The notes: a model not told the origin generated them from the sequence alone. Shown: positions 1 to 9,056, numbered from the stretch's first letter. The stretch: 17,422 nucleotides of DNA from a virus (IMGVR_UViG_2600255005_000002), one strand, 5' to 3'. Numbers and translations: made by a program.

Positions 1-1506
1 TTAGTAAGTACGAATCTTCGGCGGGAATGCCGGGCGCAGTTTCGGTTCCATGTTGACGCTACGTCGCGTCATGGATTCCGACTCTGGCAGATACAGGGAG
101 TGACACAGCCAGTTTTCATCATCACGCTCCGGGAAGTCGAAGCGGCTATGCGCGCCACGGCTTTCGGTACGGAAGTTGGCAGAAACAGCCGTTGCATACG
201 CCGTTTCCATCAGGTTATCCAGTTCCAGGCATTCAACGCGCTGGGTGTTGAACTCGCTGGAGGTGTCATCCAGACGGGCATTTTTCAGACGCTCGCGGAT
301 CACTTTCAACTGCTCAAGCCCTTTCGCCATCGCATCACCTTCACGGAAGACCGAGAAGTTATGCTGCATACATTCTTGCAGTGCTTTACGAATCGCCACC
401 GGATCTTCACCGTTACGGTTGTTGTTCCAGCGGTTCAGGCGCTCCAGAGAAGCTTCGACATCAGACTCGCTGGCATCGCGCAGTGCGCCCTGTTCGGCGA
501 TAGACTCTTGCAGATGCAGACCTGCCGCACGACCAAAGACCACCAGGTCCAGCAGCGAGTTGCCGCCAAGACGGTTAGCGCCGTGTACCGATACGCAAGC
601 AATTTCACCCACCGCGAACAGGCCAGGAATCACCACATCTTCGCCCTTCTCGTTCACGGTCAGCGCCTGCCCGGTCACTTTGGTCGGAATACCGCCCATC
701 ATGTAGTGACAGGTTGGGATAACCGGAATCGGCTCTTTCACCGGATCGACGTGAGCGAAGGTACGGGAGAGTTCAAGAATGCCCGGCAGACGGGATTCGA
801 GAACTTCTTTACCCAGGTGGTCGAGTTTCAGTTTTGCGTGTGGTCCCCACGGGCCATCACAGCCACGACCTTCACGAATTTCGATCATGATGGAACGCGC
901 CACCACATCACGCCCCGCCAGGTCTTTGGCGTTCGGCGCATAACGCTCCATAAAGCGTTCGCCATGTTTGTTCAGCAGATAACCGCCTTCACCACGGCAA
1001 CCCTCGGTGACCAGTACGCCCGCACCGGCAATACCCGTCGGGTGGAACTGCCACATTTCCATATCCTGCACCGGTACGCCTGCACGGATAGCCATGCCGA
1101 CGCCGTCGCCGGTGTTAATGTGGGCGTTGGTGGTGGACTGATAAATACGCCCTGCTCCGCCAGTCGCCAGCACGGTAGCGCGGGCTTTGAAATAAACCAC
1201 TTCACCGGTTTCGATGCACAGTGCGGTACAACCGACCACTGCGCCATCCTGGTTTTTCACCAGATCCAGCGCATACCACTCGGAGAAAATGGTGGTGTGG
1301 TTTTTCAGGTTCTGCTGATAAAGGGTGTGCAACAGTGCGTGACCGGTACGGTCAGCCGCTGCCGCTGTACGTGCCGCCTGCTCGCCGCCGAAGTTTTTCG
1401 ACTGACCGCCAAACGGACGTTGATAGATACGACCATCATCAAGGCGCGAGAACGGCAGTCCCATGTGTTCCAGTTCCAGAATCGCTTCCGGCCCGGTTTT
1501 ACACAA
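1..1506 (-). CDS. sdhA: Succinate dehydrogenase flavoprotein subunit, 5'-truncated fragment (C-terminal ~500 of 588 residues); reading frame broken at junction near 1505
   Basis: Minus-strand ORF translation ends ...[12 protein letters not shown] and contains the flavoprotein motifs ([21 protein letters not shown]) recognised as E. coli SdhA. The track start at 1506 is TTG at a position where SdhA has an internal Met (..YMCKTGPEA..), so the N-terminal ~87 residues are absent. Stop codon is at 1-3. Confidence 0.9.
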
Positions 1507-1512
1507 GAGTTA

Positions 1513-1911
1513 ATGGAATTGGCAAGTGAATTTTCTGGCATGCTTAAGTCGTCAGGTGTTCGGTCAGCGTTCTTTGTTGAAATGCTGATGCACGGCGGAC
1601 TTATGGCAACAATGAGACGTGTAATGGAAGACCAGAGAAAAGAACCTCCTCAGGTATACGTTTTGTCATCGAAGAAAACTGGGCTAACCAAAATTGGGTA
1701 TTCATCCAACATTCCACAACGCATCAAATCGCTTGGCAACTCTGGACCAGACTGCTTGAAGCTTGAGTGCCTGATCCCTGGTGGAAGAGAAACTGAAAAC
1801 ATGCTTCATCGCAAATTTGCCGCAAAGAGAAAGCACGGTGAATGGTTCGCCCTGTCCAAGGATGACATTGAGGGATTGAAATCTGTAGCGATTACTTCTG
1901 ATGGCTATTAA
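1513..1911 (+). CDS. T5orf172-type (GIY-YIG superfamily-like) small domain protein; start uncertain (ATG at 1513, 1603 or 1624)
   Basis: C-terminal 132 codons of track ORF 100..1911, the only part not antisense to sdhA. Sequence PQVYVLSSKKTGLTKIGYSSNIPQRIKSL...ENMLHRKFAAKRKHGEWFALS shows GIY(VYV)-x11-YIG(KIG) spacing, conserved Arg and Glu, and the terminal GEWF motif typical of T5orf172 domains. GGCGGA lies 3 nt before the ATG at 1603; only weak AAGAG precedes 1513. Confidence 0.6.
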   Translation: MELASEFSGMLKSSGVRSAFFVEMLMHGGLMATMRRVMEDQRKEPPQVYVLSSKKTGLTKIGYSSNIPQRIKSLGNSGPDCLKLECLIPGGRETENMLHRKFAAKRKHGEWFALSKDDIEGLKSVAITSDGY

Positions 1912-2425
1912 TGCTTGTTTAGAGCAATTTTCATAACAACTCTTCATTACAAAGCCCATTTACGGGTGGGCTTGATAATGAAACCGGAATTTATTCTGGG
2001 CCACCAGTTAACGGCAGTACCACGAAACAACCCAAGCCAGTAAGTGGAGAAATAACACCGGCAGCCACTGAAAGATGAACCTCCTGCCTTATGGCAAAAA
2101 AGATTCTTTGTGGTGGCGGACTGATGGAAAGACATCGGTTATTGCAGAGGCCATTCAATGAGTGGTCTCGACAATGGCTTATACCCTACACGGGATAACT
2201 TAACTGATATCCCTTTTAACGGATAAAGGTATTCAAGCCTGACACATCATGCGCTGTATCGTCGCTGTACTCTTGCATTAATTATGACTGTAGCCTGACG
2301 GGGAACTCCTTCTGCGCGAGTGTGCGGGAATAATCAAAAACGATGCACACCGGGGTTACCGGGTACACATATTTCATCATGCCAGCGAGTCCGGTTCTGG
2401 CGCGGAAGAAACCGGACGTTATGAT

Positions 2426-2836
2426 TTAGTGCGGAAATATTTGTGTAGTGTTCTGAATGTTCTCAGTAAATAGTAATGAATTATCAAAGGTATAGTAATA
2501 CCTTTTGTTTTCGTGGATATTTGTAACCCACCGAAAAACTCCTGCTTTAGCAAGGTTTCTTCTGTATTCCTGAAATGTGATCTCTCTGGATTTCAGCTTA
2601 TTAGAGGTCGTTTCTATAAGATGCCTATCCTTTGAAAATTTGACAGACACAATGTTTTTTAGGCCCTTTAATAACACTGTATTATCATTTTTTAATACAA
2701 TATGAACATTCTCTGTGGCTAAATAGTAAATGTAATGTGAGACATTGTGACGTTTTAGCTCAGAATAAAACCATTGATAGTTTAAATCGTTTCGAACTTT
2801 ATCAAATATTTGTTTAAAAATGACTACCTGATCCAT
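2426..2836 (-). CDS. Lambdoid right-arm accessory protein, DUF1398-like (YdfO/YbcV-family homolog); function unknown
   Basis: Minus-strand ORF (track 2426..2851, 141 aa). The internal ATG at 2834-2836 ([11 protein letters not shown]...) has a GGAAGG Shine-Dalgarno 7 nt upstream, whereas the first ATG at 2851 has none. AT-rich; resembles from memory the ORF in the last ~1 kb of lambda and its cryptic-prophage homologs. Confidence 0.6.
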
Positions 2837-2893
2837 AGATAAACCTTCCATGTGATATGAGGGGGCGTAGTCTGCACGATTATCTAAATTGCT

Positions 2894-3127
2894 TCAATCT
2901 GGTCTGACCTGTTTTCTGAGCAATTCAGTAATGTCACTCTTTTCTTTGTTTGCTTCAGGAGAAACTCTTTTTTCTGAGCACAGTCTCCGGCGGCAGGCTT
3001 CAATGACCCAGGCTGAGAAATTCCCGGACCCTTTTTGATCAAGAGCGATGTTAATTTGTTCAATCATTTGGTTAGGAAAGCGGATGTTGCGGGTTGTTGT
3101 TCTGCGGGTTCTGTTCTTCGTTGACAT
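2894..3127 (-). CDS. Small basic ribbon-helix-helix-like protein, DUF3950-like (YnfO/YlcI-family homolog of the lambda right-end ORF)
   Basis: 77-aa minus-strand ORF MSTKNRTRRTTTRNIRFPNQMIEQINIALDQKGSGNFSAWVIEACRRRL... The N-terminal ~50 residues match from memory the small ORF encoded just left of cos in lambda; the C-terminus diverges. Confidence 0.55.
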   Translation of the reverse strand: MSTKNRTRRTTTRNIRFPNQMIEQINIALDQKGSGNFSAWVIEACRRRLCSEKRVSPEANKEKSDITELLRKQVRPD

Positions 3128-3289
3128 GAGGTTGCCCTGTATTCAGTGTCGCTGATTTGTATTGTCTGAAGTTGTTTTTACGTTAAGTTGATGCAGATCA
3201 ATTAATACGATACCTGCGTCATAATTGATTATTTGACGTGGTTTGATGGCGTAGATGCACGTTGTGACATGTAGATGATAATTATTATC

Positions 3290-3510
3290 ATTTTGCGGGT
3301 CCTTTCCGGCGATCCGACAGGTTACGGGGCGGCGACCTCGCGGGTTTTCGCTATTTATGAAAATTTTCCGGTTTAAGGCGTTTCCGTTCTTCTTCGTCGT
3401 AACTTAATGTTTTTATTTAAAATACCCCCTGAAAAGAAAGGAAACGACAGGTGCTGAAAACGAACTTTTGGGCCTCTGTCGTTTCCTTTCTCTGTTTTTG
3501 TCCGTGGAAT
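3290..3510 (+). promoter_or_regulatory. cos: Lambda-type cos site (cosQ - cosN - cosB with Nu1/IHF binding elements), present as a joined circular-form junction
   Basis: Sequence ...GATCCGACAGGTTACG|GGGCGGCGACCTCGCGGGTTTTCGCTATTTATGAAAATTTTCCGG... reproduces the lambda right-end/left-end junction. It lies immediately upstream of Nu1 and includes the 14-bp inverted repeat AAAGGAAACGACAG (3437-3450) / CTGTCGTTTCCTTT (3476-3489). Confidence 0.85.
3327..3338 (+). promoter_or_regulatory. cosN: cosN 12-nt cohesive-end sequence GGGCGGCGACCT (terminase nicking site)
   Basis: Exact 12-mer GGGCGGCGACCT at 3327-3338, flanked by the characteristic GTTACG and CGCGGG. Confidence 0.85.
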
Positions 3511-3515
3511 GAACA

Positions 3516-4034
3516 ATGGAAGTCAACAAAAAGCAGCTGGCTGACATTTTCGGTGCGAGCATCCGTACCATTCAGAACTGGCAGGAGCAGGGAATGCCCG
3601 TTCTGCGAGGTGGCGGGAAGGGTAATGAGGTGCTTTATGACTCTGCCGCCGTCTAAAATGGTATGCCGAAAGGGATGCTGAAATTGAGAACGAAAAGCTG
3701 CGCCGGGAGGTTGAAGAACTGCGGCAGGCCAGCGAGACAGATCTGCAGCCAGGGACTATTGAGTACGAACGCCATCGACTTACGCGTGCGCAGGCCGACG
3801 CACAGGAGCTGAAAAATGCCAGAGACTCCGCTGAAGTGGTGGAAACCGCATTCTGTACTTTCGTGCTGTCGCGGATCGCAGGTGAAATTGCCAGTATTCT
3901 CGACGGGATCCCCCTGTCGGTGCAGCGGCGTTTTCCGGAACTGGAAAACCGACATGTTGATTTCCTGAAACGGGATATCATCAAAGCCATGAACAAAGCA
4001 GCCGCGCTGGATGAACTGATACCGGGGTTGCTGA

Positions 4035-4060
<26 letters not shown>
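3516..4060 (+). pseudogene. Nu1: Terminase small subunit Nu1, disrupted by a -1 frameshift at about 3651-3656 (premature TAA at 3654)
   Basis: ATG at 3516 gives MEVNKKQLADIFGASIRTIQNWQEQGMPVLRGGGKGNEVLYDSAAV then stop. The remainder (KWYAERDAEIENEKL...SEYIEQSG, ending at 4060) continues in another frame. Window has GTCTAAAATGG where lambda (from memory) has GTCATAAAATGG. Confidence 0.85.
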
Positions 4061-7740
<3,680 letters not shown>

Positions 7741-7760
<20 letters not shown>

Positions 7761-9056
7761 TCTCCCGCATATTGCCAGTATGGCCTTTAATGAGCCGCTT
7801 ATGCGCGGGTTTTCTTTTGTGCGCTTGCAGGCCAGCTTGGGATCAGCCGCCTGACGGATGCGGTGTCCGGCGACAGCCTGACTGCCCAGGAGGCACTCGC
7901 GACGCTGGCATTATCCGGTGATGATGACGGACCACGACAGGCCCGCAGTTATCAGGTCATGAACGGCATCGCCGTGCTGCCGGTGTCCGGCACGCTGGTC
8001 AGCCGGACGCGGGCGCTGCAGCCGTATTCGGGGATGACCGGTTACAACGGCATTATCGCCCGTCTGCAACAGGCTGCCAGCGACCCGATGGTGGACGGCA
8101 TTCTGCTCGATATGGACACGCCAGGCGGAATGGTGGCGGGAGCATTTGACTGCGCTGACATCATTGCCCGTGTGCGTGACATAAAACCGGTATGGGCGCT
8201 GGCCAACGATATGAACTGCAGTGCAGGTCAGCTGCTTGCCAGTGCCGCCTCCCGGCGTCTGGTCACGCAGACCGCCCGGACAGGCTCCATCGGCGTCATG
8301 ATGGCTCACAGTAATTACGGTGCTGCGCTGGAGAAACAGGGTGTGGAAATCACGCTGATTTACAGCGGCAGCCATAAGGTGGATGGCAACCCCTACAGCC
8401 ATCTTCCGGATGACGTCCGGGAGACACTGCAGTCCCGGATGGATGCAACCCGCCGGATGTTTGCGCAGAAGGTGTCGGCATATACCGGCCTGTCTGTGCA
8501 GGCTGTGCTGGATACAGAGGCTGCAGTGTACAGCGGTCAGGAGGCCATTGATGCCGGACTGGCTGATGAACTTGTCAACAGCACCGATGCGATCACCGTT
8601 ATGCGTGATGCACTGGATGCACGTAAATCCCGTCTCTCAGGAGGGCGAATGACCAAAGAGACTCAATCAACAACTGTTTCAGCCACCGCTTCGCAGGCTG
8701 ACGTTACTGACGTGGTGCCAGCTACGGAGGGCGAAAACGCCAGCGCGGCGCAGCCGGACGTGAACGCGCAGATCACCGCAGCGGTTGCGGCAGAAAACAG
8801 CCGCATTATGGGGATCCTCAACTGTGAGGAGGCTCACGGACGCGAAGAACAGGCGCGCGTTCTGGCAGAAACCCCCGGAATGACCGTGGAAACGGCCCGC
8901 CGCATTCTGGCCGCAGCACCACAGAGTGCACAGGCGCGCAGTGACACTGCGCTGGATCGTCTGATGCAGGGTGCACCGGCACCGCTGGCTGCAGGTAACC
9001 TGGCATCTGATACCAATAAAGAATTACTTAATACACCTGAAGCTTTACCGGTATAA
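7741..9056 (+). pseudogene. C: Prohead protease/scaffold gpC, N-terminus disrupted by a ~16-bp deletion at about 7799-7800; downstream frame open
   Basis: GTG at 7741 gives MTAELRNLPHIASMAFNEPLM then diverges, with a stop at 7852-7854. The C sequence resumes in frame 0 (ARVFFCALAGQLGIS..SGDSLTAQEALATLALSGDDDGPRQ...). Window has GAGCCGCTTATGCGCGGG where lambda (from memory) has GAGCCGCTGATGCTTGAACCCGCCTATGCGCGGG. Confidence 0.75.
8439..9056 (+). CDS. Nu3: Scaffolding protein Nu3 (in-frame internal start within C), apparently intact
   Basis: ATG at 8439 (MDATRRMFAQKVSAYTGLSVQ...) is in the downstream C frame, which is uninterrupted to the stop at 9054-9056. C-terminus (..AAGNLASDTNKELLNTPEALPV) differs from lambda. 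Confidence 0.5.
   Translation: MDATRRMFAQKVSAYTGLSVQAVLDTEAAVYSGQEAIDAGLADELVNSTDAITVMRDALDARKSRLSGGRMTKETQSTTVSATASQADVTDVVPATEGENASAAQPDVNAQITAAVAAENSRIMGILNCEEAHGREEQARVLAETPGMTVETARRILAAAPQSAQARSDTALDRLMQGAPAPLAAGNLASDTNKELLNTPEALPV

Follow-up and report, generated by a model that had tools for sequence, protein, structure and literature searches.

Near the left end of a 17,422-nucleotide stretch of viral DNA (IMGVR_UViG_2600255005_000002; the whole stretch is called the window below), a short open reading frame lies upstream of the cos site of a lambda-like prophage. A first-pass annotation took this frame for a minimal, stand-alone nuclease gene of the GIY-YIG/T5orf172 type. The locus raises two questions: whether the window contains a complete gene, and what the protein encoded by such a gene is likely to do. 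The features on which the first question turns are listed here.

1–1505, − strand: host gene sdhA, for the flavoprotein of succinate dehydrogenase, 3′ part only, approximately codons 88–588 and the stop codon; the first ~87 codons are absent
1505/1506, no strand: blunt breakpoint between sdhA and prophage; in the alignment to two intact prophages, identity begins at 1506 (AGAGTTAATGG...)
1506–1911, + strand: 3′ 406 nt of the HK106 gp64-type T5orf172/GIY-YIG gene, comprising the last base of codon 28, codons 29–162 and the stop codon
1513–1911, + strand: the open reading frame flagged earlier, 132 aa, starting at the first in-frame ATG past the breakpoint (Met31 of the intact protein)
1513–1641, + strand: what is left of the three-helix N-terminal domain, namely helix 3 and half of helix 2, without helix 1
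1642–1908, + strand: complete T5orf172/MUG113 (GIY-YIG-fold) domain, with the family-invariant residues present

The open reading frame encodes a complete nuclease-type domain

The product of the flagged frame, whose stop codon is at 1909–1911, matched the Pfam family MUG113 (PF13455) with 56.5 bits (E 4.4e-15; gathering threshold 22.3) and T5orf172 (PF10544) with 41.4 bits (E 2.2e-10; gathering threshold 20). The T5orf172 alignment ran from residue 48 to residue 120 of the frame, against profile positions 3–94 of 101, and the intact 162-aa protein described below scored 41.0 bits against the same profile. The generic GIY-YIG model PF01541 gave 12.9 bits (E 0.14), under its threshold of 22.6, and aligned to the first two strands only. 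Membership of the GIY-YIG superfamily therefore rests on the two sister families and on the predicted fold. The profile search that the first-pass annotation had recommended was thus significant for T5orf172 and not for the generic model, and its description of a GIY-YIG/T5orf172-like domain with a GEWF motif (1837–1848) is upheld.

An alignment of 49 sequences, extending down to ~30% identity, contained the following invariant residues (numbering of the 162-aa protein): Y79, K90-I91-G92, R100, E125, H129 and E140-W141-F142. All of these are retained in the window copy, where Y79 is encoded at 1657–1659, R100 at 1720–1722, E125 at 1795–1797, H129 at 1807–1809 and E140-W141-F142 at 1840–1848. 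The predicted active-site set, a Tyr in strand 1, an Arg in helix 1 and a Glu, is therefore present, with E125 and E140 both candidates for the metal ligand.

The window holds the 3′ part of a longer, catalogued gene

The product of the flagged frame was identical to residues 31–162 of WP_016245257.1, a 'GIY-YIG nuclease family protein' of E. coli GmM066 and Combat11I9 that is encoded by a gene of 489 nt and has 162 aa. At the nucleotide level, window 1506–1911 was 100% identical to positions 6001–6406 of the GmM066 locus (L001), in which the gene is annotated at 5918–6406. The intact gene therefore begins 83 nt 5′ of the breakpoint, and not at 1513 as had been proposed. The window copy lacks these 83 nt of coding sequence, the native start codon, the ribosome binding site and all upstream DNA; the late operon that lies 5′ of the intact gene (Q, pR′ and the lysis genes) is missing too. 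The intact protein was 99.4% identical to gp64 of phage HK106 (YP_007151734.1) and 100% identical to its counterpart in phage Chlobot, and it matched the PHROGs family phrog_4284 over residues 1–162 with an E-value of 8.9e-88. Full-length phrog_4284 members have a two-domain architecture of ~160–175 aa, which the window copy does not reach because of the breakpoint at 1506: it starts at residue 29, or at residue 31 if counted from the first Met, and is a fragment of a member. Compared with HK106 gp64, the window copy is without codons 1–28, the start and the upstream sequence, and next to it lies sdhA in place of the lysis genes. The 132-aa frame exists only because the first ATG in phase past the break happens to be that of Met31.

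By alignment, then, window 1506–1911 is the beheaded 3′ part of a known lambdoid-phage gene (HK106 gp64, phrog_4284). The gene already has entries in RefSeq, the HK106 genome annotation and PHROGs, and it is no new kind of element. For this window the outcome is a correction: the supposedly minimal, stand-alone nuclease is an incomplete, 5′-truncated copy of a catalogued gene, and the sdhA/phage breakpoint 7 nt 5′ of its ATG had been overlooked.

The truncated frame would still be a complete gene if translation naturally began at Met31, so that the 132-aa product was a functional minimal T5orf172 nuclease, carried as a moron for superinfection exclusion, anti-defence or homing. Such a product would contain the full nuclease domain with every invariant residue, a weak GAG lies 6–8 nt 5′ of the ATG, and exactly this form was called by the gene caller of the protein collection in 294 blocks, intact prophages (L005–L010) included. 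Start calls for the family vary, however: PGAP gives 162 aa and other callers 174 or 224 aa, and the 162-aa or a longer form is used by PGAP, by the HK106 authors and by PHROGs alike. The 30 codons before Met31 also speak against such a gene. Homologues from Salmonella (83% identity), a metagenome (80%), Klebsiella (76%) and another prophage (49%) have the same Met start and align over the first 30 residues, and dN/dS for codons 1–30 was 0.06–0.15, a range that also holds for the remaining codons (Nei–Gojobori method; E. coli, Salmonella, Klebsiella and P0007 homologues). Judged by these comparisons, codons 1–30 are real coding sequence under purifying selection. In addition, the ATG in the window lies 7 nt from the break into antisense sdhA, a simple sigma-70 consensus scan found no promoter-like site in window 1300–1513, and the break falls within helix 2 of the N-terminal domain. 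We consider it extremely unlikely that the 132-aa frame is a complete functional gene. The first-pass annotation had allowed that a shorter internal frame might prove to be the conserved one; the relationship is the inverse, and the longer frame is the conserved form. The start-site inconsistency is systematic, in that many callers give 132 aa even in intact prophages, although selection acts on the 162-aa form.

A 603-aa open reading frame (100–1911, + strand) was considered as a fusion protein and rejected, since over its first 1.4 kb it runs antisense to sdhA, through a frame that is open and by chance in phase with the phage gene.

The window copy itself is, we infer, a non-functional remnant. 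Its nuclease domain is intact, however, and the frame is open upstream through antisense sdhA (the same 100–1911 frame), so that read-through expression is possible. Roles in exclusion, anti-defence or homing are unlikely for this beheaded, promoter-less copy. If the junction with sdhA is a contig join in the TW11588 assembly discussed next, the fragment would instead be an assembly-truncated view of an intact gene.

The break joins prophage DNA to an inverted host gene

Translation of the frame covering 1–1506 gave SdhA through to its native C-terminus, representing the 3′ five-sixths of the gene. Window 1–1505 was matched by all 5,426 of 5,426 complete E. coli genomes, with a best identity of 96.7%. 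This level of identity is consistent with the source of the window, record AEMF01000001.1 (GCA_000208585.2) of Escherichia sp. TW11588, which belongs to cryptic clade IV and is from soil. When 1300–3400 was used as a megablast query, prophage homology began at query position 207, corresponding to window 1506. Thus sdhA is interrupted near codon 88, where it meets late-region DNA of the prophage in inverted orientation. Neither microhomology nor an IS element was found at 1505/1506 in the alignment with two intact prophages. The junction was spanned by 0 of 5,426 complete E. coli genomes in the megablast search, and an exact search for the junction 32-mer found it in none of the GTDB species representatives.

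The junction is either one end of an inversion or deletion that inactivates succinate dehydrogenase, or an artefact of contig concatenation. The state of the rest of the prophage bears on this choice, and its features are as follows.

1945–2227, no strand: conserved lambdoid 'joint', the right border of the cargo slot; matches 216 phage records, most of them without the nuclease gene
2426–2851, − strand: DUF1398 (YbcV-like) gene (PF07166, 157 bits), annotated in relatives
2894–3127, − strand: YlcI/YnfO (DUF3950) gene (PF13132, 74.6 bits), annotated in relatives
3327–3338, + strand: cosN cohesive-end 12-mer GGGCGGCGACCT, the lambda sequence, with a single exact match in the window
3516–4060, + strand: Nu1/NohD small terminase gene, with an inactivating deletion of 1 nt at 3654, as aligned to the intact nohD of Combat11I9

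The remainder of the window is collinear with the head and tail genes of lambda. Two further frameshifting deletions were identified, of 1 nt in the portal gene at 6409 and of 16 nt in the protease C gene at 7800, the latter with CCGC microhomology at its flanks; the reference for all three deletions, at 3654, 6409 and 7800, was a 97%-identical intact prophage. With three inactivating deletions, this lambda-like prophage is defective even in apparently collinear regions.

Large deletions and inversions are common in cryptic prophages. The three small deletions resemble genuine decay of this kind, since the 16-nt event has microhomology and the two 1-nt events lie outside homopolymers, and the junction is arranged as one end of a prophage–sdhA inversion would be. 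The join also contains no run of N. These observations argue against a junction of non-biological origin, in which AEMF01000001.1 would consist of joined draft contigs and TW11588 itself would possess undamaged copies of both genes, sdhA and the 162-aa gene, the latter preceded by its lysis genes. On the other side, the record is a single 4,463,584-bp 'contig' from an early whole-genome shotgun draft, the join is blunt and lacks microhomology while interrupting two otherwise conserved genes at once, it occurs in no complete E. coli genome and no GTDB representative, and the loss of sdhA would abolish succinate dehydrogenase. An assembly artefact is accordingly quite plausible, even if we lean slightly against it. 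The breakpoint, as rearrangement or as assembly join, is the real oddity of this window; whichever its origin, the sequence as given contains a gene fragment.

The intact protein has two domains

The structure of the intact protein was predicted by AlphaFold from the family alignment (pLDDT 79.8). The model contains three long helices followed by a β-β-α-β-α-β-α core, which corresponds to the GIY-YIG α/β fold. The helices are predicted at 2–28, 32–55 and 61–83 in the numbering of homologue P0003, which is the 162-aa numbering plus 12. A model of the nuclease domain only, made from the 49 sequences, had a pLDDT of 90.3 and a pTM of 0.80. A profile search of PDB sequences found no sequence-level relative, and the only match was spurious (E 0.66).

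The N-terminal domain comprises residues 1–75, of which the window copy retains the last ~45. The absence of any extension to the nuclease domain, as reported in the first-pass annotation, is thus a property of the fragment: the natural protein has a conserved three-helix domain of ~75 residues that is under purifying selection. This domain is acidic (pI 5.4), and the C-terminal domain is basic (pI 9.4). Searches of Pfam and NCBIfam gave no match for the N-terminal domain, and its structural matches were to generic helical bundles only. An acidic domain that resembles a generic bundle is not an evident candidate for DNA recognition.

The Pfam domain and its conserved Glu are shared with the T5orf172 homing genes of ICP1-like, T5-like and other phages, with Odn and with the CapR protein of PLE (PMC10448857). 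Like the gp64 family, these homing genes are free-standing and are present or absent between related phages (PMC10448857). Their products carry zinc-finger repeats of the CapR, DUF723 or DUF4397 type (PMC10448857), whereas members of the gp64 family have the acidic three-helix domain. The partner domains of canonical GIY-YIG proteins (the I-TevI catalytic domain, SLX1/HIGLE, the UvrC N-domain and PD-T4-3) also differ from that of the gp64 family. The T5orf172/MUG113 domain superfamily contained 38,839 representatives at E ≤ 1e-3, and the N-terminal domain was common to only ~15.

The gene is a cassette in a variable slot between lysis and packaging genes

In E. coli prophages and in HK106, the order is spanin gene, intrinsic terminator, gene and cos. 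HK106 gp64, WP_016245257.1 and phrog_4284 have this location in common, along with the joint sequence 3′ of the gene. The orientation of the gene toward cos, the same as that of Nu1 and A, and its location between the lysis genes and cos had been described accurately. The statement that it is the sole coding sequence of the window that is neither host nor lambda-collinear was inexact, as the DUF1398 and DUF3950/YlcI genes sit between the open reading frame and cos. These two genes are lysogen-type cargo, oriented opposite to late transcription.

Phages HK106 and HK022 share the flanks of this region and differ in a unique segment, which is 616 bp in HK106 (this gene) and 1.1 kb in HK022 (the KilA-N/P63C gene, gp73). 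The gene thus behaves as a presence/absence cassette, as a homing endonuclease gene does, with the limit that the slot in HK022 holds another gene and is not an empty site. Elsewhere the slot contains borD (K-12 DLP12), gene 66 (Sf6) or rha (P22). The bor gene of lambda and borD of DLP12 occupy the same Rz-to-cos slot in collinear prophages; bor is, however, an unrelated lipoprotein gene that is expressed in the lysogen and lies on the opposite strand, whereas the nuclease gene is on the strand of the late operon.

The joint at 1945–2227 is a 283-bp segment, non-coding or relic, that is 90–99% conserved. Its carriers include HK022, HK446, mEpX1/2, Sf6, P22 (in which it overlaps the start of rha), epsilon34 and some Stx phages. 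It borders a slot that may hold bor, KilA-N, Rha, gp66 or T5orf172 genes, and it flanks both the HK106 and the epsilon34 alleles. A search of 1400–3600 against Rfam (E ≤ 1) returned only a chance miRNA match, and there is thus no known RNA in the 500-nt gap 3′ of the gene.

The P22-like Salmonella phages epsilon34 and g341c encode proteins (gp68 and gp64 respectively) of 161 aa, with the same two-domain architecture and in the same slot after Rz and a terminator. Their amino-acid identity is only 33%, which makes this gene a divergent allele in the same cassette site; in epsilon34 the flanks on both sides of the divergent allele are 86–97% identical in DNA sequence. At four more distant loci (P0014, P0009, P0005 and P0007) the homologue likewise lies between the lysis genes and terminase, despite unrelated holins, endolysins and terminases. 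The exception is homologue P0016, which is found among apparent tail genes. The family therefore occurs consistently between the lysis and packaging modules in diverse enterobacterial temperate phages. Together with the invariant residues, these comparisons establish that intact members have two domains and have kept an active site of the GIY-YIG type, and that their gene forms a swappable cassette next to the packaging genes.

An identity peak centred on the gene was considered as a signature of homing by co-conversion and rejected. The upstream flank was equally conserved in E. coli prophages, and HK106 alone showed a mild dip in the flank. Among the E. coli prophages, nucleotide identity does not rise sharply from the upstream flank into the gene, which leaves no clear co-conversion signature.

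An intrinsic terminator lies upstream of the gene, after Rz, and none was found directly downstream on the + strand. A sigma-70 consensus scan of positions 5600–7000 of an intact locus (L002) gave no promoter-like site, and none was seen in the ~150 nt that separate the gene from the Rz terminator; the scan was crude and a weak promoter could escape it. By this crude scan the gene has neither the promoter nor the terminator of its own that define a moron in the HK97-like sense.

Possible functions of the intact protein

The Q-modified polymerase of lambda passes terminators and crosses cos. We therefore infer that a gp64-family gene, although preceded by a terminator, would be transcribed late by Q-modified polymerase. 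The product would be a Mg-dependent DNA endonuclease acting during lytic growth. Its likeliest role would be that of a selfish, homing-type or competitor-directed nuclease that cuts the DNA of related phages without the cassette, in a process resembling marker exclusion, and the N-terminal domain might serve in oligomerisation or in the choice of partner or target.

The model for this proposal is the set of characterised T5orf172 genes in ICP1-like phages. These are homing-endonuclease genes, located most often beside terminase genes and at recombination boundaries, and their products depend on the conserved Glu for nuclease activity (PMC10448857). Several observations fit it less well. The acidic N-terminal domain is unlike the CapR-type zinc-finger DNA-binding domains of the characterised T5orf172 homing enzymes (PMC10448857), no clear co-conversion signature was seen, homologue P0016 lies outside the lysis-to-packaging slot, and the Glu of GEWF is replaced by Gly in one Salmonella representative. 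On balance, we regard the account as a whole, a beheaded gp64 copy in the window and an intact family of late DNA endonucleases engaged in homing or phage competition, as probable.

A different possibility is that the intact protein is a nuclease for prophage defence or superinfection exclusion, expressed in the lysogen and degrading incoming phage DNA. There is precedent for a defence function in PD-T4-3 (PMC9519451), and phi80 carries defence cargo in the same slot (PMC11364771). The protein also gave a weak match to the PADLOC candidate-defence model PDC-S57 (23.8 bits, E 7e-6), which is far from full length, however, as it aligns residues 73–146 with profile positions 3–83 of 212. Expression in the lysogen is difficult to reconcile with the scan, which gave no sigma-70-like promoter for the ~150 nt from the Rz terminator to the gene, and with the location of the gene on the late-operon strand, opposite to the lysogen-type cargo genes bor, DUF1398 and YlcI of this neighbourhood. 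A defence nuclease therefore seems unlikely.

Alternatively, the protein could be a domesticated, non-cleaving DNA-binding regulator or antirepressor-like factor, on the pattern of the T5orf172 repressor CapR, which the Vibrio PLE satellites encode (PMC10448857). The slot in sister phages does hold regulators, of the KilA-N/P63C type (HK022 gp73) and of the Rha type, and one Salmonella cluster representative has lost the GEWF Glu. The invariance of the Tyr, the Arg, both Glu and the His in 49 sequences, down to ~30% identity, is as expected for a maintained active site and argues against this explanation, as does the lack of a recognisable DNA-binding domain in a protein with an acidic N-terminal domain. 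We judge a regulatory function to be very unlikely.

Within the favoured account of a late endonuclease, a more specific version would make the gp64 family a new architecture among T5orf172 homing or competition nucleases. The acidic three-helix domain, which would be previously undescribed, would provide targeting or oligomerisation, the cutting of relatives without the cassette would help to create and keep the well-known mosaic joint between lysis and packaging genes at the right end of lambdoid genomes, and the window copy would be a dead relic. This version is doubtful. If cutting of competitor phage DNA by the gp64 family is true, the picture from ICP1, in which nuclease genes lie at recombination boundaries, would extend to lambdoid phages; this would be a modest, incremental advance.

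Distribution and variant alleles

The gene was present in 82 of the 5,426 complete E. coli genomes, with at least 99% identity in every case and near full length in 80, and full-length copies were found in ~45 IMG/VR contigs. Among species-representative genomes there was one close relative, on a mis-binned 2.9-kb contig of a metagenome-assembled genome, together with distant domain homologues in Streptomyces. The occurrence of the family is thus sporadic and at the level of strains.

Two variants were noted among the homologues. A cluster of 114 members from Salmonella enterica is represented by a protein (P0002, 98% identical) with Gly in place of the Glu of GEWF (KHGGWF) and Tyr in place of Asp110. 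This type of allele may be inactivated; the substitutions were seen in the cluster representative only. In Klebsiella variicola (ABLFZS040000006.1; L020 4001–5187), the last 4 nt of a 76%-identical homologue overlap the next gene, which encodes a 232-aa protein of the Endonuclease_NS family (PF01223), and the pair is possibly a two-nuclease cassette in the same slot.
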